This document shows positions 511 to 52,893 of a DNA stretch of 64,000 nt, piece after piece. The position numbers were made by a program, and so were the translations under genes. A model generated the notes under the pieces. It was not told where the DNA came from. It did no database searches and saw only the letters and a list, made by a program, of their open reading frames with translations. This DNA comes from Leucoraja erinacea (lineage: Eukaryota), in NCBI RefSeq assembly GCF_028641065.1, contig NC_073384.1, positions 33,604,001-33,668,000 of the forward strand, read 5' to 3'. Position 1 is the stretch's first letter. The number at the start of each line of letters is the position of its first letter.

Positions 511-2579
511 ACTAATGTTAATCATTGCTGTGTGTATACTGTTTAGTCCAGGTACTTCATGAGAACAAGGGAATTTTATTGCACCATGACAATAAATTCA
601 TCTGAAACTGATTCTATTTGCATCAGAGATGTGGCCTATACACAGTACAAACTAAAGGCACTGTAAAAATACCATCAGTACTGTCTTCTCAAAATCATTC
701 AAAGTTACCGTAGGAACAACCAACCAATATCTGTGTCCTCTCCTGGACCAATATCCCCAGAACTGAAGCCCTTGGTAAATTCATTCATTTCCACATCATC
801 TGAAGGAAGGTCCCTGCCCGAATCGCCGCTAATCCATGTTCTCTAAAGATGCTGTTTGATCTGCTGAGTTACTCCAGCACTTTGTGTTTTTTTTTGCTCA
901 TGATTCCAGCATCATCAATTCCCTGTCATCATTCTTCCCAATGCCATTTTCATACTGCCATTCCTTAATGCATTTAATTTTCAGCGACTTTACTTCTATA
1001 TTAATTCAGGAGCACAACAGTAGAGTTGCTGCCTTACAGTGCCAGGAACCATGTTCAATCCTGACTATGGGCGCTGTCTGTATGGAGTACGTACGTTCTA
1101 CCTATGACCGCATGGGTTTTCTCCGGGTACTCCAGTTTCCTCCCACACTCCAAAGACACACAGATTTGTAGGTTAATTGGCCTTGATATATTGTCCCTAG
1201 TGTGTAGGATTAGAACTAGTATACAGGTGATCGCTGGTCAACATGGACTAGATGGGCTGAAGGGCTGTTTCTACTCTGTACCTCTAAACTAAACTCAAGA
1301 GATCCAAAGCCCATTTTGAGGAAGTTAAAGGTTGCTATATTTGAGCAAGGTTTTTCATTGTTTGTAAAACATTAAAAAAAACAGAAAGACAAATGGTCTA
1401 CAGTACTGAAAATATACATATTGAACAAAGTATTTAAGATAACTCTAGATTATAAAATAAATTAGTACTGCTTTATAAAGCAGGTCAATGTAACTATCTA
1501 CTATAACAATTGTTTACAGTTTGTTAAAAGGACCACAATTACTTAACCCTGAGCAACCTTTAAAGATAGCCACAATTTAAACTCTTATTGCATGGACTTA
1601 CAATCTTTGGTTCACTTTGTATGTTGAGGCATGCAGAAAGAAGCAATATGGGAAAATACATGAACAATAGGTTGATGCAATAAACATAAAACAAAAGCAC
1701 ACTTCGACTGCTTAAAGGTTTTGAGAAAGAAAATCGTGAAAGTTACAAAGCATCACTTCCACCGCCCACCCTCACGTTGTATTGGAAAAGCAGCCAACAT
1801 AATCAAGGACTTGTGTCATACTTCTCTCAGAAGATACAGAAGCTTAAAAGCGCGCATCAGCAGACTCAGGAACAGTTTCTTCCCATCTATAAATCAGGCT
1901 TCTGAACGGTCCTTCCATAAGTTTGGGGACTGTCCGATTCACCTCTACCTCACTGCGGGCATTGGCCTTTGACTCTGGAACTGGCGCACTACAATGCTGA
2001 GAACTATTTTCTGCACTCTGCACCTTCCCCTATTGTACTTGCGTTTGACTTGATTGTATTGATGTATACTGTTATCCGATCTGAATGGATAGCATGCAAA
2101 ACAAAGCTTTTCAACCTAGACCCACCATGAACATACCATCCTCAGTGAATTTTACTGAAGTACAGCAAGCGTAGCATGGACTGAACTACACGTGCAACTC
2201 TCCAGAAGCAACCTGAGCAGTCTTGTGGTCGGGCCAGGCCGGCAGAGACCAGCAGCAAAACTCCCCCTTGACACTGACAGCTACGCGTTAAAACCTACTA
2301 CAAAGCCTTAACGACAAATTCATTTTTGTTTCTGGGGGATCTGGTTTTCTCCCACATTCCAAAAACTATGGTGGCTTGCAGGTTAATAGGCTTCTGTAAA
2401 TTGTCCCTATGGTCGGATAGAATCAAGTCAAACTCAAGGACAATAGATAGAACAAAGGGGAAGATAGAGAGTGACTGAATTCAATGGCTTGCAAACCCTC
2501 TGAGCCAACTTTACATGATGCACACAGAAGGATAAAGAGCCAATATCAAAGCAGATAAGTGAGAGATGGTATCAGCAGG

Positions 2580-3200
2580 TTAGGTTCCAGGCGTACACTG
2601 GCCCTGTCCCCGAACTCTATGTCTGTTACATTGATGACTGCATCAGTGCAACCTCCTGCACCCATGCAGAAAACATTTACTTCATCCACTTCACCACAAT
2701 TTTCACAGATTTACTTGGACCATCTCCGGCACCTCCCTCCCCTTTCGTGATCTCACAGTCCCCATCACAGGAAACAGACTATTGACTGACGTCTATTAGA
2801 AACCCATTGACTCCCACAACTATCTCGAGTACACTTCTTCCCATCCTTTGCTTCGTGCAAAGACTCTATCCCCTACTCCCAATTCCTCTGTCTACACCGC
2901 ATTTGCACCCAAGATTAGGTGTTACATACCATGACATCCGAGATGTCCTCATTCTTGAGGGAACGGGAGTTCTCCTCGCCCATCATAGATGAGGCCCTCA
3001 CTTGTGTCTCCTCGATACGCCGCAGCTGCACCCCTGGTCCCCCTCCCCCAGTGGCAACAGAGGCAGTCCCCCTAGTGTTACCTTCCAACCCATCAGGCGT
3101 TGCATATAACACATAATCCTCCGAAATTTCCGATACCTCCAGTGGGATCCCACCACTAGCCACATTTTCCCATGTCCACCCCTTTCTGCCTTCCGTGAGA
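2580..3200 (+). mobile_element. Penelope-like retroelement RT C-terminal fragment
   Basis: Decayed YIDD, TDVY, TSEMSSFLRER segments, similar to the copies at 43.3-43.8 kb and 61 kb. Confidence 0.75.
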
Positions 3201-3527
3201 ATATACTAGGTATGTAAAGAATAGTAGAATTGTTATATTGATCTTTGTACTGAAATGCCAGAGGACTTTACTGTGTACCAACCGAGGACTTAAGTGTTAT
3301 CATCAAAAATGATAAAAGGAGGGAATGAGAATATACTAGGTATGTAAGGAATAGTAGAATAAATTGGACTGAAGTTTTATAAAGCAGCAACATGATTTCC
3401 TGACTTTTATACTCAATGTCCCAACAGATGAAGGCAAGCCTATCATACACCTTCTTTACCACTATCTACTATGTTGCCAATTTTAGGGAATTATGGACTT
3501 GGACCCAAAGATCCCTCTGTACATTAA

Positions 3528-5678
3528 TGGCTAGTTTTCACGGAGCGACTTGAAGCAAGATGTAGCCAGAGTGGAGTGGTCGTGGTCTAGCACGATATCA
3601 CACGATATAACGGAGGTAGAGTAAAGAGATCCCACGGTACTCGGCAATTCTGTCATTTGTACGAGTGACTTGTCCGTCTCCCGATCTTTCCTGTTAATCG
3701 TGAATGAACATCATGGACTGTAGTGTAGTTAATCACGTGGCACAAATTATGTTACTTTGTTGTCACACACTATATCCGTTTTTTTCACCCGAGCTCTTTA
3801 ATGAGCTGAACAATAATCTGTATTTTTTTAGACAAATGTTGTTTGGTGTGATGCACCTTCTCTCAATATGTGCAAGAAGTCGTCTTTTTATTTTGTCAAA
3901 TATGAATAAACACTGTATCTCACATTGACCGTGATGATTGTGTTATTTTATGATCTACTGAGAGGTGAAACTTTCAGTCTGAAGAAGGCTCTCGACCCGA
4001 AACGCCACCCGTTCCTTCTCTCCAGAGATGCTGCCTGTCCCACTGAGTTGCTCCAAGCAACTGGTGTCTATCTTCAAAGGACTGACCAGGACTGCCTCTC
4101 TCTCTTTCTCTCTCTCTCTCCCCCTCCCTCTCTCACACAGGCATGAATGGATGAACTCCGCGGGCCAGGCAGCATCTACGGAGGGAAATGGACAGGCGAC
4201 CCATTCTTCAGGCTGCCTTATGTCTCTCCCCCCCCCCCCCCCCCCCTCACCCCAACTCCCACCCACACACACGAATGCTGGAGAAACTCAGCGGGTGCAG
4301 CAGGGCCGAAACGTTGTCTATTTCCTTCGTTCCATAGATGCTGCTGCACCCGCGGAGTTTCTCCAGCATTCGCGTGTGTGGGTGGGAGTTGGGGGGGGAG
4401 AGAGACATAAGGCAGCCTGAAGAATGGGTCGCCTGTCCATTTCCCTCCGTAAATGCTGCCTGGCCCGCGGAGTTCCTCCATTCATGCCTGTGTGAGAGGG
4501 AGGGAGGGAGAGAGAGAGAGAGAGAGAGAGAGACACACACAAGGTGGATGCGAAATCTCACCTGCCTGTTTCAGTGACAGACACCCACCGCCAGTAAATG
4601 AAGACACCCCCATCTGTCTCCCCCTCCTCTCCCTCGACTCCCCCACCTTTCCCTCCCAACTCCAGTCCCGTCCCGACCCCCTGGGAAACTGAAGGTTTCC
4701 CGCTGTAATTAAAGAGTTCCCACGGTAGACTGTAAAACTGGGACCCTGGTTCTGGACTCCCCCAACATCGGGAACATTCTTCCTCCATCTAGCCTGTTCA
4801 ATCCCGTAGATACGATTAGACAGGTATCTAGTTATTTAATTCAATTAATGATTTCTATCGCCCAGCCTCTCATCTTTCAATCGGGTTCGGCCAGGAAGGA
4901 ACTGCAGATGCTGGATTAAAACGAAGATAGACACAACATGTAGCTCAGCGGGACAAGCAGCATATCAGAAGGATCTCGACCCGAAATGTCACCCATTCCT
5001 TCTCCCCAAAGATGCTGCCTGCCGTCGAGTTACTCATTCTCTTTAAACCGGCATCTGCTGTTCCTTCCGACACATACACAAGAAAGAAGCAACTTTTCGG
5101 GCCGAAACGTTGCCTATTTCCTTCGTCCCATAGATGCTGCTGCACCCGCTGAGTTTCTCCAGCATTTGTGTGTGTGGGTGGGAGTTGGGGGGGGTAGAGA
5201 GATAAGGCAGCCCGAGGAAAGGCTCGCCTGTCAATTTCCCTCCGTAGATGCTGCCTGGCCCGCGGAGTTCCTCCAGTTAGAAACTGTTTTCAGACAAAAA
5301 GAGACACACTGACATTAATGAATTGCTTGTTAGCTAGTTTTATTAGATTTGTATGTAAATAGCAAACTGGCTGGATTCACTCTATCCAACTTCCGGGTTC
5401 ACCGTTCGCAGGAGTTCCCATGGTGACCGCAAGAGTTACTACGGATATCGCACTGGCCACTACGTTCATAAAATGTTGCAATGCTCAACCACAAGTGCAC
5501 AAGTCACTCTTGGACAAATTCAAACATGTTTGAATTTTCTCCCGAGTACCCAAGTTACACGATTACCTGCCGTTAGCGCCACGGTGGTCCACGAATGCCG
5601 TACTGTTACCGCACGAGGTTCCCACGATGTTAAACTCTGGTTACCTCTTCGGTCAAGTCGTCCCGTGAAAAGGGGGTT
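3528..5678. mobile_element. Non-autonomous PIF/Harbinger-like DNA element with nested Penelope-derived repeats
   Basis: Imperfect TIRs (TTTTCACGGAGCGACTTGAAGCAAGATGTAGCCAGAGT vs reverse complement TTTTCACGGGACGACTTGACCGAAGAGGTAACCAGAGT); TAA on both flanks (3525-3527, 5679-5681). Confidence 0.6.
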
Positions 5679-44045: not shown

Positions 44046-45113
44046 ATATATAATCTAGTCTTTTATTGTATGTGGTGCCAGATCACGTGTTGGATTTGTA
44101 GAGGATCGATGTTGACACAGGATGGACTAAATAACTTTTTTAAATGACCCCCTATGTAGATGTCTGCATTCTTTCAGTTGTGGCCACTTTTGCATCTCAG
44201 GGAAACATGGAATAAGATGTACTGCTTGGGTTAGACCAAGACTGTACCTGTAAACATGTAGCAAGGAAGAATTTCATCTTTCAGGTTCTTATGCAGTGCA
44301 TGTGACAGATAAACATGCTTGAATTTTGCGCAAAGTTTCCCCTGAAACCAATACATGAGAGATGGCAGAGGAGTTTAAAAGATATTCTGCATCAGACGTT
44401 AAAGTCAGAATTACTATGGATATCCATTTATCCCAACAAATTAAATTAAATACTGGAATTAAATAGTCACCATTCCTGGAGAATTGGTATGCAAATTAAT
44501 GGGGCCAAAGGCTGATAAATTCCCTGGACTTAATACAGCTCCAGAGACATGGACTTCATTAGTTACAGTCTTCAACAATGTTGAGATTCTGGAGATACAT
44601 AAATACAAATATTTTTTTTCTCCAATGAATCCCTTGTTATAAGTGGAGATGAATTGTATGGAATGTTTATCTCAACAAAAATAACAATACACATAAATGG
44701 AGACATATACTTTTAAATGCATGTTAAATATAGGTAACATAGTTTAAGAATATAATTCACAAGAAATAATAGTGTAGTTTAGATACAGCTTGGAAACAGG
44801 CTCTTTGGCCCACTGAGTCCACACCGTTCACATTAGTTCTACATTATTCCACTTTCTCATCCACTCCTTATGCACCAGGGGCACAAACCCGCACATATTT
44901 GGAATGTGGGAGGAAACCGGAGCACCCGGAGGAAACCCACACGGTCACAGGGAGAACGTGCAAACTCCCCACAGACGGCAGCTGAGGCCAGGATTGAACC
45001 CGAGTCTCTGGCGCTGTGAGGCAGCGACTCTACCAGCTGCACCACTGTTCCACCCTAGTTGATGCACAAGAACACCCAGGTACTAACCAGAGATGTTGTG
45101 TGGTGGAGCAGGG

Positions 45114-46787
45114 TTACGTGGGGGGAGAGGGAGGCTCTATTTTGAAGATGAGGAAAGCATCGACAGGTATTTGCTGCGCGTTGCGCATCCTTTCCTTGTA
45201 CATTTGCCTGTAACAGCTGATGGCATCCTGCAGCAATCGCCCGACCTTCAAACTGCGCTCCCGGTTCGGATCATTAGCACTGAGGATGTGCACGACTTGA
45301 TCGATGTAGGACAAGACATCAGACAGGTGGCTGGTCTGCAGTTGAAGCGGGGCGGGCGGCTCCTGATCCTCAGCCTCTTCTGCCGATCGCTCCTGCTCCA
45401 GCAACACGAGGTCTTCGTTGGACAGATCTTCGTTTTGTGAATCCAGCAGCTGAATCACGTCTCCGTCGACGATGTCCTGAAAGCCGGCCTCGTTCGCCAG
45501 TCCCACAATGTCGCTGGTGACTTTCTCTGCAGGTTCTGCTGGTGGAATGCCACCAAAGTTGCTGACACACTCCGGCCAGATGTTTTTCCAGGCACCATTC
45601 ATTGTAGAAATGCTCACCTCATCCCATGACTCCGAGATGTTGTCTATTGCATTCATAATGTTAAAGCTTTTCCAAAATTCTCGAACTGTTGGTTTACTAT
45701 GTCCATCAGTCACATTGACCAATTGCGCAAACGTTTTTCTTAAATAATATCTCTTGAAATTTGCAATTACACCTTGATCCATTGGTTGTAATAAGGCTTT
45801 TGTGTTCTTGGACAAGTACTCTACTCTCACATTGTCAGTAAGATTGTTTAAGTGCAGTGGGTGGCTGGGCGCCTTGTCTAGAATGAGCAAAGCTTTGTTG
45901 GGAATGTTGCATTTGGCACAGTACCTCTCCAAGGCAGGGCAGAAATGGTTGATAAACCAGTCGTGAAAAATAGCCGCAGTCATCCAAGCTTTCCGGTTCG
46001 AGCACCAAATGACAGGTAAGTTTGGCTTTGCATAGCCCTGGAGAGCTCTGGGATTTTCACAGCTGTACACTAGAACGGGCTTTAACTTAAAATCGCCGGC
46101 AGCATTGCCTCCCAGAAGTAGTGCCAGATGATCCCTGGAAGCCTTAAAACCCGCAGCAGACTGCTCTTCTATGGATATAAATGTCCTTTCAGGCAAGCGT
46201 TTCCAAAAAAGAACCGTTTCATCTGCATTGAACACCTGTCCTGGCAGAAATCCTTCTTCATCGATGATCTTTTTCAATTCACTAGGATAATTTATTGCAA
46301 CTTCTACATCAGCAGTTTGCACGTTATTCAGGTTAAATCGCTTCCGAAATCGGTCAAACCAACCTTTGCTTGCCTGGAATGGTTTTTTGTGAGCACCACT
46401 ACCTTCTTCTTTCACCAAATCATTGTACAAGCTCTTGGCCTTAGACTGAATAGCTATCATATTTAAGGGGACATCGAGTTGCCCCTGGTCTTGAATCCAC
46501 ACACTCAGCAGCCTTTCCATGTTAAGCATCACTTCACTGCGATGAAAATACAGTGTTCGAGCACTTAACGGTGTTGCAACTTGAGCACTGGCCATGATTC
46601 TATCTCTGCTGTCCCTTATTGTTGCCACGGTAGATGTAGCAAGCCCCAGAGTTTTGGAAATTGCACTAAGTTTCTCTCCAGCAGCAAATCTTTGTAAAAT
46701 ATCCAGTTTTACATCCAGAGTGATTCCTTTACGTGTACGTTTAGGTTTACTATTTGCACTGGAACCTGTTGACCTTTTCCCAGACAT
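45114..46787 (-). CDS. Tigger/pogo transposase-derived protein (TIGD1-like; CENP-B-type HTH domains plus DDE_1), 557 aa, intact
   Basis: Uninterrupted ORF with RKGITLDVKLDIL...STVATI, FQASKGWFDRFRKR, FNADET, LLILDKAPSH and QPMDQG (DD32D). Confidence 0.92.
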   Translation of the reverse strand: MSGKRSTGSSANSKPKRTRKGITLDVKLDILQRFAAGEKLSAISKTLGLATSTVATIRDSRDRIMASAQVATPLSARTLYFHRSEVMLNMERLLSVWIQDQGQLDVPLNMIAIQSKAKSLYNDLVKEEGSGAHKKPFQASKGWFDRFRKRFNLNNVQTADVEVAINYPSELKKIIDEEGFLPGQVFNADETVLFWKRLPERTFISIEEQSAAGFKASRDHLALLLGGNAAGDFKLKPVLVYSCENPRALQGYAKPNLPVIWCSNRKAWMTAAIFHDWFINHFCPALERYCAKCNIPNKALLILDKAPSHPLHLNNLTDNVRVEYLSKNTKALLQPMDQGVIANFKRYYLRKTFAQLVNVTDGHSKPTVREFWKSFNIMNAIDNISESWDEVSISTMNGAWKNIWPECVSNFGGIPPAEPAEKVTSDIVGLANEAGFQDIVDGDVIQLLDSQNEDLSNEDLVLLEQERSAEEAEDQEPPAPLQLQTSHLSDVLSYIDQVVHILSANDPNRERSLKVGRLLQDAISCYRQMYKERMRNAQQIPVDAFLIFKIEPPSPPT

Positions 46788-47136
46788 CTTGAGGGTAAAT
46801 AACGTGGAAAAACCTTGAAGAAAAGCTTGGACAGCGGAAGCAAACAGGACCTGCTGTGTGGACTGAAGTCAAACCAATCTGCCACATCTTCTGCACACGC
46901 ATCTGAAAATGCCAGTTGAGTATCTGGAAACAAAATTGACAATATTTGTTGTTTCTTTCTCTTTTATTTTCACAATTTTTAAATGTAATTATGCCCTAAA
47001 TTCGGTGAGTAATTTTTTTTTCTGTACCTCAAATTTTTTTATGGTGATTTGTGATTTTCGTAAGGGTAAATTTCCGTTATCGCAACTGCCTTAATGTATG
47101 AATACACTGTTCTACAGGATTGGAAAACTGACCATA

Positions 47137-47230
47137 CAGATGCTTCCTGACTTACGGAATGCTTGTGTCCTGCAGACCCATGCCTAAGTCAGAGGTTACG
47201 CAAGTCAGAAATGGAAATACCACTGCGCGC
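47137..47230 (+). mobile_element. Tigger-type terminal repeat fragment (MER47-like)
   Basis: TA|CAGATGCTTCCTGACTTACG...CCCATGCCTAAGTC; no partner TIR found. Confidence 0.4.
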
Positions 47231-48563
47231 ATGTAAATTTACTGTTTGATGTAGAGACCATGCGAGAGTGTCGACGCGGGGACCACGGGGGAGTCAAAAA
47301 GGCTTATGGCACGTTGGCCTTCATCAGTCAGAGTACTGAGTATCGAAGTTTGGAGCTACAAAAATTGTAGTTATATGAGACATTGATGAGGCTGCATTTA
47401 GAGCATTGTGTTCAGTTCTGGGCACCTTGTCATAGGAAAGATGTTGCCAGCTGGAAAGAGTGCAGAGTAGATTTACGAGGATGGGGCCAGGACTCAGGGG
47501 CCTGAGCTATAGGGAGAGATTGAGCAGGCTATGACTCTATTCTTTGGAGGGCAGGAAGATGTGGGGTGATCTTATAGATGTGTACAAAATCAAGGGAGGA
47601 ATAGACCAGGTAAATGCACTGAGTCTTGTGCCCAGAGTAGGCAAATCGAAGGGAGGTAGGCTCGTGGGGGGGGGGGGGGTTAGGGTCGGGGGAGGGGGTA
47701 GGATCGAGGGGGAGAGTTGGGGGGGGGGGGGGGGGGGAGAGAGTTGGGGGGGGGGGGGGGGGGGGAGAAGAGTCTGGGGGGGGGGGGTGCGGGTGCCAGT
47801 GTAGCACACGGGGAGAGAGCGGTGACAGTGCGGCATGGTCAATGACTGGGTGGACGGAGAGACCAGACTGTCCCCAACTCTGCTGCCGGACATTGCCGGG
47901 TTTTCGACCCCATGTGTGATTACGGCCCCGCTCCACCCGGCCCCGTGTGTGGGCGCTGCCGACCCACAGCCCGTGACAGTGCAGCCGCACAGAGGGAGAC
48001 GGGGCGGAGGGCGGCCGTGGTCGGACAGCGCTGACCCCGGGGTGCTGTCCCGAGTGATGCGCTCCATCGGTCGCTTATGCCTTGCTCAGGTTCAGAGCAA
48101 AGATACTAGAGCGCTGTCACTCTCCACAATTATTTACAGCGCAAAAGGTTGATAATTTCAGTGTTTTTTAACAGATAAGAAAGTACATATTTCGTGTATT
48201 AACAGTGTATGCCGGAAGTTGCCATGTTCTACAGACGGATTGAGCTGCTCCGTGCGTCACGCCCTTTGACCCGATGACCTTACGTGCAACCCCCCAATAG
48301 AGAAAGACCTGGATGGAGTGATTGTGGAGAGTCTAGGGCCAGAGGCCATAGCCTCAGAATAAAAGTACGTACCTTTAGAAAGGAGAAATTTGTTTAGTCA
48401 AGAGGATGGCAAATTCATTGGCACAGACAGCTGGTGAGGCCAAATCAATGGATATTTTTAAGGCAGCGATTAACATATTCTTGATTAGTGAGGGTGTCAG
48501 AGATTACGTGGAAAAGGCAGAATAGGGTTGAGACAGAAAGATAGATCAGCCATGATCTAGAGT

Positions 48564-48803
48564 AGGTACACAAAAATGCTGGAGAAACTCAGCGGGTGCA
48601 GCAGCATCTATGGAGCGAAGGAAAAAGGCGACGTTTCGGGCCGAAACCCTTCTTCAGACTGATGGTCCATCAGTCTGAAGAAGGGTTTTGGCCCGAAAGG
48701 TCGCCTTTTTTCTTCACTCCATAGATGCTGCTGCACCCGCTGAGTTTCTCCAGCATTTTTGTGTACCTTCGATCTTCCAGCATCTGCAGTTCCTTCTTGA
48801 ACA
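48564..48803. mobile_element. Penelope-derived fold-back element inserted in a CR1 3' UTR
   Basis: Near-perfect palindrome with about 100-bp arms; TSD CATGATCTAGAGT (48551-48563, 48804-48816). Confidence 0.8.
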
Positions 48804-49399
48804 CATGATCTAGAGTAGACTAGGTGGAGTAGACTTGATAGAAACATAGAAATTAGGTGCAGGAGTAGGCCATTCGGCCCTTTGAGCCTGCACCGCCATT
48901 CAATATGATCATGGCTGATCATCCAACTCAGTATCCCGTACCTGCCTTCTCTCCATACCCTCTGATCCTCTTAGCCACAAGGGCCACATCTAACTCCCTC
49001 TTAAATATAGCCAATGAACTGGCCTCGACTACCCTCTGTGGCAGAGAGTTGGGCCAAATGGCCTAATTCTGCTCATAGAACTTATGAACTGCCATTCTCC
49101 CAATATGTTGGCTAACTCTTTGAAATATGACTTGGCCCTTTGTTTTGCTGAATCTGAGCTAAGCTGCTGAATGTGGTTCTGTAAAAAATAAATATCCAGG
49201 CAGAGAAAGAAAGATACTGCCTGACCCACTGGGTTATTCCAACGTTTTGGGTCCATCTTTGTCCAAAGTGCAAGTTTCTTGTTGCAAACTTAGGGTTTTC
49301 AGATATTTCTACAACTTCAGATAAGACAGTTTGTCATCCTTTATACAGAGTTGGCTGTACAGTTGTGTATAGTACACACTCTGCAGAAATAATAAATCT

Positions 49400-49920
49400 A
49401 CGCGTGCGCAGTAGCTCTACCGTTGCTCCGACTTGCGTAACATCTGACATACGGTATGGTCCGCGGAACGTAATCATTACACGCCGGGGAGCGGCTGCAT
49501 CTTTGCTGTCCTGTGTGAACGTATCATACATTCCGGGCGCTGACGATAAGATCTTTTACCTCAGCACCGCCTGCTCCTCCCGCAGCTCCCCGCGCCCATT
49601 GGCTCCATCACCTGGCGACGGACACCCGCCTGCGCTTCCCGCTCCCAGCCCAGCGCCAGCCCAGCGCCAGCACAACTCACGTGATCACATGCGGAAGTGA
49701 CGCAGGCACGCAGTGGGCCTCGCTCCCTCGCTCTTCCCGCCCCCCCCCCCCCCCCCCCCCCCACGTCGCCTGGCAACCGAGAAGCCGCGGCCTAGTGAAG
49801 AGCAACGGCGCTCCCATCCTAACCCGGGGGGTGGGGGAAGCGGTCTGGGGACATGCCTTGGGCCTCGCAGCCACCGCAAACGACAGTCTGACGGCCTGTG
49901 AGAAATTCTTAAAATCTGAA
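49400..49920. promoter_or_regulatory. CpG island / bidirectional promoter with E-box, ETS-CRE composite and RFX X-box
   Basis: TCACGTGA 49677-49684; CGGAAGTGACGC 49692-49703; GTCGCCTGGCAAC 49765-49777; plus-strand donor-like GAA|GTACGG at 49920/49921. Confidence 0.6.
49560..49690 (-). other. Putative non-coding first exon of the Tigger-derived gene
   Basis: CpG-rich; donor GCTGAG|GTAAAA at 49560/49559; candidate acceptor ttttgtttccAG at 46925-46924, 136 nt upstream of the ATG; 5' end approximate. Confidence 0.5.
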
Positions 49921-50519
49921 GTACGGCTTGCATCAGGTTTTACACGTTGCATTGGTTATGTGGTGGGATTATTGGCTATTGCAAAGTGTTCCTTGGGGGC
50001 AGGTGGCTGCAGAGACGTGTGTGGGATTGGGTGTGAAAACACAGTTGCACTAATGAGGTTGCTCTGAAAGCTGGCAAAGGCACGATGGGCCGAACAGGCG
50101 CAACGAGAAGAAATATCGACCGGCTTTTGGATAGGCACGTGGTTATGGAGTGGTGTGAATTATCGGCAGGTAGATTAGGGTGTTTTGGTAACTATAATGG
50201 TAACTGTAACTTTAAGTACTGAGTACTAGAATGGTATGATTTGTGTCATGAGATATATTCAATATCATCAGTTTTGTGAATGTGTGTGAGTATGCGCAGT
50301 GTACCTTTGTAAAATAAAGAAGACCCGCACTGGCAATAGCGTGTACTGAAAACCTGTGCTTATTTCTATCTGCATACTGAAGCCGTAAAATCTTACAATG
50401 ACAATTATTGTCAACTTCAAAGTCTTGCCTTTGTGTTGTACTTCACAAGCTATCGCTCCACATGTCTCCAATCTTCTCATAGAAAGAAGGCTTTGAACTA
50501 GACTGAGTTTGGTTCTACC

Positions 50520-52893
50520 CAGGGCTGCCAACTCTCACGTATTGAGCGTGAGAATCACGCATTTCGCCAAATTTTCACGCTCTAACGCTGATCACAAATT
50601 TCTCACAATCTGTCCTGAGAAATTCTGTGATCAACGAAAATGTCAAAACTCATATCAACATTGGTTGCGGGTGTTGGAGAGCCGGTGCTGAGGGAGGGAT
50701 GGAAGCAGAAGCAACGGCGGGGACAGATGCGGACGGGGAGCCGGGGCTGGCGAGTGTTTGCCGGTGGGCGAGTGTTTGCCGGGCTGACGAGTATTTGCCG
50801 GGCTGGCGAGTCGTTCGCTGCAGCTCCGGCCATGGAGCAGACTCAGTACAAGAGTCCCGGGCCGTCGGAAGCGTTGCGCTGCTGCCGTGAGAGTCTCTGT
50901 GCCAAATTCGCCCAGGTGTCCGGCATGGATCAGGCTGCAGCTCGGTGCATCCTGGAGGACAACCAGTGGCTGCTGGAAGTAAGTACCAAGCACTGGGTAG
51001 AAACGGTGGAAGACAGTGGCCTTTAAATGGGGGTGGTTGGAGAAAGCATCCTGCTTGCCTGCTAGATTTTCACTTACTGTAACTGCAGGAAAAATGTTCC
51101 CGATGTTGGGGGATTACAGTTTAAGAATAAAAGGTAGGCCAGTTAGGACTGAGATGATTAGGAAAGTGGCCGATTAGGAAAGGGGGAGAGGCAACGAGAC
51201 CTGGGTGTCATGGTACACCAGTCATTGAAAGTAGGCATGCAGGTGCAGCAGGCAGTGAAGAAAGTGAATGGTATGTTAGCATTCATAGCAAAAGGATTTG
51301 AGTATAGGAGCAGGGAGGTTCTATTGCAGTTGCACAGGGTCTTGGTGAGACCACACCTGGAGTATTGCGTACAGTTTTGGTCTCTTAATCTGAGGAAAGA
51401 CATTCTTGCCATAGGGGGAGTACAGAGAAGGTTCACCAGACTGATTCCTGGGATGTCAGGACTTTCATATGAAGAAAGACTGGATAGACTCGACTTGTAC
51501 TCGCTAGAATTTAGAAGATTGAGGGGGGATCTTATAGAAACTTACAAAATTCTTAAGGGGTTGGACAGGCTAGATGCAGGAAGATTGTTCCCGATGTTGG
51601 GGAAGTCCAGAACAAGGGGTCACAGTTTAAGGATAAGGGGGAAATCTTTTAGGACCGAGATGAGGAAAACATTTTTCACACAGAGAGTGCTGAATCTCTG
51701 TAATTCTCTGCCACAGAAGGTAGTTGAAGCCAGTTCATTGGCTATATTTAAAAGGGAGTTAGATGTGGCCCTTGTGGCTAAAGGGATCAGGGGGTATTGA
51801 GAGAAGGCAGGTACAGGATACTGATTTGGATGATCAGCCATGATCATATTGAATGGCGGTGCAGGCCCGAAGGACCGAATGGCCTACTCCTGCACCTATT
51901 TTCTATGTTTCTATGAGGACAAACTTTCTTCACGTAGAGAATTGTGAATTCTCTGCCACAGAAGGCAGTGGAGGCCAATTCACTGGATGTTTTCAAGCGC
52001 ACCTACATTTTCTCTTGGGGCTAGCAATCAAGAGATATGAGGACAAACTACTGATTTTCACCATGTATTGAATGGCAGTTGGCTGAAGGGCCGAATGGCT
52101 CTTCCTGCACCTATTTTCTATGTTTCTATGAGGACAAACTTTCTTCACGTAGAGAGTTGTGAATTCTCTGCCACAGAAGGCAGTGGAGGCCAATTCACTG
52201 GATGTTTTCAAGCGAGAATTACATTTAGCTCTTGGGGCTAGCAATATCAAGAGATATGGGGAAAAAACAGGAAAGAGGTACTGATTTTAGATGAACAGCC
52301 ATGATCGTATTGAATGGCAGTGCTGGCTCGAAGGGCCGAATGGCCTATTCCTGCACCTTATATGGCAATAAAACTCAACCACTTGATTTTTAAGCATTCA
52401 TGCATGGTGGAGGTATGATGTAGTCATAGAGTGATACAGTGTGAAAACAGGCCCTTTGGCGTAACTTGCCCACACCCGCCAACATGTCCCAGCTACACTA
52501 CCTGCTTTTGGTCCATATCCCTCCAAACCTGTCCTCTCCATGTATCAGTCTAACTGTTTCTTAAATGTTGGGACAGTCCCTGCCTCAACTGCCTCCTCTG
52601 GTAGCTTGTTCCATACACCCACCTTTGTGTGGAAAAAGTTACCCCTTAAAAAGTAACCTCTTAAAAATACTTAAATCAAAAAACATTGAAATCATTCTTC
52701 TACAATGCACGAAAACATGATTTTAATACATCGAATTTCAAAAAGTCCCTACCATGGGAGGGGGTACACCGATCATGGTAGGGACACCTTCCCCCCCCCA
52801 CTCAGTTGCTCCACTCCCTCGCCGAGTACCTCCAAGGCCAGTGATCAGTGATAGCTCAGCCTCCCCAATTTCAAAAATGCTCCGTAGCCCCCG
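50520..52893. mobile_element. Putative hAT-type non-autonomous element carrying the TDP2-like exon and CR1 fragments
   Basis: Left end CAGGGCTGCCAACTCTCACG; right end ...AATTTCAAAAATGCTCCGTAGCCCCCG; flanks GTTCTACC/GTTCAGAC only 5/8 identical. Confidence 0.45.
50832..50978 (+). pseudogene. Orphan TDP2-like exon 1 (UBA-like domain fragment)
   Basis: RESLCAKFAQVSGMDQAAARCILEDNQWLLE|GTAAGT resembles TDP2 RRLLCVEFASVASCDAAVAQCFLAENDWEME; no further TDP2 exons seen in the window. Confidence 0.65.

Follow-up and report, generated by a model that had tools for sequence, protein, structure and literature searches.

Whether an intact transposase reading frame still belongs to a mobile element or has become a gene of its host is the question raised by a 64,000-nucleotide stretch of Leucoraja erinacea DNA (contig NC_073384.1, positions 33,604,001–33,668,000; hereafter the window), which carries a 557-amino acid (aa) Tigger/pogo open reading frame (ORF) between POLR3F and a C6orf118-like gene. 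A first-pass annotation of the window had proposed domestication, and this is supported by our analysis, in which no near copy was seen among the genomic candidates scored, the element ends are eroded, and probable orthologues occur in four batoid orders. The ORF is probably an immobile and conserved host gene derived from a whole Tigger transposase that was tamed in the ancestor of skates and rays, and its product would now regulate by binding DNA instead of cutting it.

The ORF was borne out as intact and free of stops (46787–45114, minus strand), and no second Tigger-like stretch was found within the window. Pfam places CENP-B_N at residues 16–66 (a weak match under the curated cut-off), HTH_Tnp_Tc5 at 90–155 and DDE_1 at 220–400, and the protein therefore has the features listed for pogo/Tigger-derived proteins in PMC7386202 (these three domains and a DD29–36D triad), with CENP-B_N below the cut-off and a DD32D spacing within the range. 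The AlphaFold model (predicted local distance difference test score, pLDDT, 78; predicted template modelling score, pTM, 0.58) is similar to chains of the Mos1 transpososome (best E 2.4e-6) and to the CENP-B N-terminus, and a sequence search against solved structures returned only the CENP-B N-terminus (E 0.0012) and one match at E 0.82.

An intact ORF and triad are also what would be expected of a Tigger transposon that is active or was so until recently, or of a fossil that has stayed intact by luck, and the copy counts which bear on this are lower bounds, as our searches of the skate's own genome scored the best candidates only (78 of 213 for protein and 40 of 8,157 for DNA). The protein search produced 81 matches, comprising the gene itself, two paralogues on contig C39 at 69–70% identity, full-length ORFs at no more than 45% and numerous broken fragments, while the DNA search found three non-self matches over the ORF (73, 74 and 69%), with the others falling on a repeat in the 3′ untranslated region (UTR). 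No near-identical dispersed copy was present among the candidates scored: the only 100% match is to self, and the next stand at 69–70% (amino acid) and 73–74% (nucleotide), in keeping with the first-pass proposal. Inverted end pairs of the TA-CAG type were absent from the 1.5-kb flanks of the gene and of six related ORFs, and the same search recovered perfect pairs at three distant pogo-type loci, which thus serve as a positive control. The claim that the ORF has neither paired terminal inverted repeats (TIRs) nor a TA duplication consequently holds for intact TIRs, but not for eroded ends, which are recognisable by alignment with relics (Table 1); these two ends are complementary at 11 of 21 bases and are flanked by AA and GA, not TA. 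The flanks derive from the old element, with the 5′ flank matched at eight or more other places and the 3′ flank at four or more (one of them an internally deleted copy), and the nine family left ends are just 56–78% alike, which indicates that this Tigger family is old. A broken family copy elsewhere (C10:26444020–26447798, L015) carries a SINE-like (short interspersed nuclear element-like) insertion at roughly the same position after the stop as that in the window (44770–45050), and this shared insertion reflects either an old DNA duplication of the gene or an insertion-carrying subfamily.

Purifying selection on the gene is evident when it is compared with its paralogues, with ratios of non-synonymous to synonymous substitution (dN/dS) of 0.16 and 0.18, values taken from paralogues, not orthologues, and at a dS near saturation (1.06–1.25). 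Mismatches with the intact paralogue are concentrated in third codon positions (0.18/0.15/0.46), whereas the broken C10 copy decays evenly across them (0.25/0.21/0.29), with frameshifts at 23 of its 29 gaps. In all five species pairs the Tigger protein shows higher conservation than its C6orf118-like neighbour, the skate proteins differ by just 0–4 of 557 residues, and the dN of the first helix-turn-helix (HTH) domain against the paralogue is 0.11. In a simulation of neutral decay, 8 of 2,000 frames stayed open at 0.10 substitutions per site and 0 of 2,000 at 0.15. Taken with the lack of a close copy among the candidates scored, the absence of an intact TIR pair with TA and the orthologues in four orders, this leads us to reject a live transposon or lucky fossil as extremely improbable.

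The probable orthologues are from Amblyraja (99% identity), Pristis (77–78%), Narcine (75%), Mobula (73%) and Hypanus (72%), and are RefSeq proteins automatically annotated by similarity as 'tigger transposable element-derived protein 1-like'; those of Amblyraja and Hypanus fall in the same clusters as the top batoid matches. All named matches above 61% identity are batoid, and the nearest named relatives outside the batoids are those of Homarus at 59–69%. Every orthologue lacks six residues of the linker that follows the second HTH domain, a deletion which occurs in only 4 of the 70 rows of a wide alignment, all four belonging to the orthologue group (Narcine is in a separate alignment). We constructed a quick tree of 55 rows and a careful tree of 24, both excluding the partial own-genome matches L008 and L009. 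The careful tree places 14 batoid proteins in one clade (100/100), with the six orthologues on one side of a branch with 79/79 support (unstarred) and a batoid–lobster–octopus grouping at 92/89. CENPBD1 and the shark proteins are outside the batoid clade. The first-pass description of the gene as possibly chondrichthyan-specific was too wide: the best shark proteins reach 48–49% and sit in a separate clade with turtle proteins, which leaves a chondrichthyan-wide gene unsupported, and CENPBD1 forms another clade apart from this shark–turtle group. No shark or chimaera protein above 49% was named among the best 120 of 404 near-length matches, nor any at all among 99 shorter ones, in a collection where shark proteins are present, and a search of 50% clusters added only unnamed distant relatives. 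The gene therefore looks batoid-specific.

In the window, the gene is tail-to-tail with POLR3F (the exons of which were recognised via Pfam) and head-to-head with the C6orf118-like gene, the large exon of which is identical to a protein labelled Leucoraja erinacea by NCBI. The expectation of an orthologue between these neighbours in other species was upheld in part: the Tigger and C6orf118-like proteins share the same longest contig in 6/6 species, the accession numbers of the two are consecutive in Amblyraja and almost so in Hypanus (2/6), and a link to the locus itself is given by a match to the exon 1 donor. This match comes from the N-terminal extensions of a Hypanus isoform, ending GAE, and of the Narcine protein, ending AVLR; just one of the 6,907 GT sites in the window, the 49559 donor, is preceded by sequence encoding these residues, although the E value of a plain tblastn is only 0.55, and the region around this donor is unique host DNA. 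Contig sharing, the adjacent accessions and a donor common to two orders are indirect pointers to the same genomic locus across the batoids.

The gene is probably transcribed and spliced, as judged for the joint from depth of coverage. Both splice sites are exactly where they had been placed, with the acceptor AG at 46925–46924, 136 nt upstream of the ATG, and the donor at 49560/49559 in a CpG island (observed/expected CpG 0.96 in 49200–49599 and 0.73 in 49600–49999), and the proposed non-coding first exon is supported, its donor at 49559 being the one matched by the gene-model extensions in Hypanus and Narcine. No run containing the stretch is recorded as RNA; contigs from X2 and X9, which we take by guess to be RNA, span the ORF and halt at 46923, the acceptor. 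X2 depth in the bin beyond the acceptor is 4.19 compared with 4.20 predicted from the exon alone, and the last X9 contig continues for 34 letters past 46923, matching a depth of 0.41 in the 49520–49820 bin, which is that of 34 letters at the depth of this contig. The 44102–44402 and 49821–50121 bins are empty in both, as RNA would give, and X22 and X23, sampled as raw reads (~6% and ~1% of each run), provide thin ORF coverage only. The proposed polyadenylation signal exists, as the sole AATAAA or ATTAAA on the minus strand across 45113–43500 (at 44067–44062), but its use is unsupported because X2 and X9 show zero depth in 44102–44402.

As the flanks belong to the old element, the splice acceptor sits inside transposon-derived DNA. 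Exon 1 was not brought in by a repeat, as 49500–50150 is unique apart from a poly-G run. The CpG-island promoter is probably shared with the C6orf118-like gene, and we put this no more strongly because no convincing position for exon 1 of that gene emerged when the N-terminal extension of a shark protein was used to place it. Intron 1 contains a pair of small, related inverted-repeat elements (47135–47225 and 49427–49478; 73% complementary over 52 nt). On the plus strand, a short exon at 50832–50978 matches UBA weakly, has a splice donor and resembles TDP2 exon 1.

The catalytic triad was confirmed as D189/D304/D337 with 32 residues between the last two, and the nearby motif deviations (DKAPSH, YLSKNTK and the short linker at NNVQTAD) are real in alignments. 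The weight that had been put on the intact triad was nonetheless overstated, as Gly replaces the first Asp in Mobula and Hypanus, and the domesticated human TIGD1 has the DD32D state too. In Narcine the triad spacing is shorter by one residue, and the paralogues have lost the first and third Asp in 8/8 rows. Amongst 60 relatives aligned, 24 have an intact triad, and these retain a GE in the linker in 20/24 cases and, in the loop that precedes the third Asp, a Pro in 23/24; the orthologues have neither. In Mos1, DNA is positioned for cleavage by WVPHEL in the linker and by YSPDL close to the third Asp, and their mutation lowers activity (PMC4344528); given that the orthologues lack what may be the counterparts of these motifs, transposition has likely been lost.

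This bears on the suggestion that the domesticated protein still works as a metal-dependent nuclease or recombinase, serving the host in repairing or rearranging DNA and possibly partnered by the triad-less paralogues. Such a role would suit the retention of all three Asp in skates, sawfish and electric ray against the loss of the triad from both paralogue lineages, the well conserved catalytic domain and the transposase-like fold of the predicted model. However, Mobula and Hypanus have Gly in place of the first Asp although the gene is otherwise kept, the linker is deleted in all orthologues, and triads also persist in JRK, JRKL and POGZ (PMC7386202 Table 1), so that persistence alone is not diagnostic. 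We regard the triad as weak evidence of catalysis and a nuclease role as quite unlikely. A more elaborate version, which we consider improbable, is a batoid three-gene family from one horizontally acquired Tigger, in which this copy would be a nicking or repair nuclease re-tooled by the loss of the linker and the triad-less paralogues its partners, as a ray-only vertebrate parallel to SETMAR or PGBD5.

We favour instead a history in which a Tigger family, the nearest found relatives of which are multi-copy in lobster, may have entered the batoid ancestor by horizontal acquisition. One copy would have inserted between POLR3F and the C6orf118-like gene and gained a CpG-island promoter when a host first exon was spliced to an acceptor within the element's own 5′ region. 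The 6-aa linker deletion and the worn loop before the third Asp would cripple transposition while the Asp residues stayed, and the first of these may have been lost later in stingrays and mantas. The pair of HTH domains would still recognise DNA resembling the ends of the ancestral element, much as human JRK binds the terminal repeats of Tigger (PMC11601247), and the protein would act as a transcription or chromatin factor, likely as a sequence-specific DNA-binding protein of the JRK or CENP-B kind. Alternatively, the protein may have been domesticated to repress its own transposon family, whether by occupying the ends or by forming inactive dimers with the transposase, and may have persisted since then as a protein scaffold that has no specific target in DNA. 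This fits the retention of the entire protein, C-terminal helices included, the drift of HTH residues in stingrays, and family relics that are today too eroded to offer good sites, but the family looks long extinct and yet the skate proteins are nearly invariant, and the first HTH has a low dN against the paralogue. We judge it unlikely, though worth keeping in mind.

Several observations weigh against a DNA-binding regulator of this history. The triad is kept in 15/15 listed skate-cluster proteins, Pristis and Narcine (3/4 orders), and the catalytic domain, 76–79% conserved across orders, is at least as conserved as the HTH domains (67–82%), which indicates a role beyond that of the HTH domains. 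Ser stands in place of the loop Pro in two lobster fragments as well, and our equation of the pogo linker and loop with the Mos1 motifs is by position only. The use of paralogues in the dN/dS estimates counts here too, as do accessions that are 883 to 4,119 from the neighbour in Pristis, Narcine and two Mobula (4/6), which we treated as uninformative. The 49560→46923 joint is absent among the spliced joints listed (a further 632 lie beyond these), and X2 and X9 are RNA by guess.

Table 1. Positions of the gene and associated features in the window.
Feature	Position	Strand	Basis
Non-coding exon 1 (donor 49560/49559; 5′ end approximate; single-copy host DNA)	49560..49690	-	Run contigs, repeat search, gene-model extensions
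CpG-rich promoter region, probably shared head-to-head with C6orf118-like	49200..50000	.	CpG observed/expected; unique except poly-G run
Eroded left end (TIR relic) of original element	47089..47109	-	Inferred, alignment with 8 relics
Polypyrimidine tract and AG acceptor, within old element's own 5′ region	46924..46950	-	X2 and X9 contigs terminate at 46923; relic homology
Exon 2 upstream of the start codon (136 nt), untranslated and of transposon origin, with further ATGs at 46902 and 46887	46788..46923	-	Run contigs and relic homology
Sole coding exon (557-aa protein of Tigger origin with two HTH domains, DDE_1 and C-terminal helices)	45114..46787	-	ORF, Pfam, model; fold similar to Mos1 and CENP-B N-terminus
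Shortened linker, residues ~153–162 (6-aa deletion removes GE-containing motif; common to all orthologues)	46302..46331	-	Alignments
D189 codon, first catalytic Asp (Gly in Mobula and Hypanus orthologues)	46221..46223	-	Alignment
D304 codon, second catalytic Asp	45876..45878	-	Translation
D337 codon, third catalytic Asp (DD32D)	45777..45779	-	Translation
High-copy SINE-like insertion in 3′ UTR	44770..45050	-	Own-genome DNA search
Eroded right end (TIR relic)	44623..44643	-	Inferred; 11/21 bases complementary to left end
AATAAA (exists, use unsupported)	44062..44067	-	Motif scan; X2/X9 depth

A number of related loci were also noted. The C39 paralogues (C39:2392496–2400385; L002, L003, L013 and L014) are divergently oriented and triad-less, with 561 aa and 397 aa, the latter without HTH domains, and this skate pair groups with itself and not member by member with the sawfish counterparts, a hint of gene conversion or of duplications that took place separately. 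Four long Tigger ORFs of 540–565 aa (L004–L007; 39–44% identity) form one clade and have no TIR pair in their 1.5-kb flanks, and three near-identical pogo-type ORFs of 591–596 aa with perfect TA-flanked TIRs (L010, L011 and L012 on C184 and C1511; 27% identical to the gene) are probably a young family. A 560-aa TIGD1-like protein conserved between Carcharodon and Scyliorhinus (P0070, P0079) has the look of a domestication that sharks underwent separately; in the whale shark, a 560-aa DD32L element present as a single copy has been classed as a transposon (PMC7386202 Table S1). Marsupial proteins fusing PF02023 to a related Tigger transposase (P0010, P0012; 57–58% identity) represent another domestication from the same broad lineage.

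Two surveys of pogo domestication place stable genes in lobe-finned fish and tetrapods (PMC7386202, PMC7325037), and our findings would extend this to the batoids as an independent event which repeats the TIGD1 route of a CpG-island promoter and host first exon. The orthologue lineage kept the triad and lost the linker, while the paralogues kept the linker length and lost the triad, providing a natural comparison. The gene is a candidate regulator confined to one lineage, within a group used as a model of development; its function is putative, and no new mechanism is involved. We found no description of it as a batoid domestication in the accessible literature, a scope with subscription papers and bioRxiv supplements largely outside it that leaves absence from print unproven, and it is apparently undescribed as such, though of a known kind. 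Gao et al. list 12 domesticated genes and set aside TIGD1-like proteins as pseudogene-like, and their supplements, where accessible, hold no Amblyraja or Leucoraja entry (PMC7386202).

Of the known systems, the Homarus americanus multi-copy Tigger (P0008, P0087, P0340–P0343) includes the nearest named non-batoid relatives (59–69%) and with Octopus forms the sister group (92/89), but consists of many fragments on different contigs with a full-length linker. The therian CENPBD1 shares 51–54% identity, the same domains and a related Tigger lineage (PMC7386202). It is, however, DD32G and an independent domestication in a separate supported clade, and we rule out that the batoid gene, which is DD32D and forms no clade with it, is its orthologue. 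JRK is likewise Tigger-derived with DD32D/E and is a model for the binding of old element ends (PMC11601247), but is outside the tree and not among the named close matches, and binding is known for JRK and proposed for the batoid protein; JRK, JRKL and TIGD2–7 are all missing from the best 120 matches of the protein search, and the tree holds no named reference of them. Eight of the 13 human Tigger-derived genes are at bidirectional CpG-island promoters, and TIGD1, which has kept its catalytic core (PMC2777200) and is DD32D (PMC7325037), is the closest parallel in form: a whole Tigger transposase with its ends partly lost, a non-coding exon 1 and a bidirectional CpG-island promoter (PMC2777200, PMC7325037). 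It differs in being primate-only and head-to-head with EIF4E2 (PMC2777200), and human TIGD1 is outside the tree; the batoid gene, with POLR3F and C6orf118-like as its neighbours, is not a TIGD1 orthologue, as the first-pass annotation had suspected.

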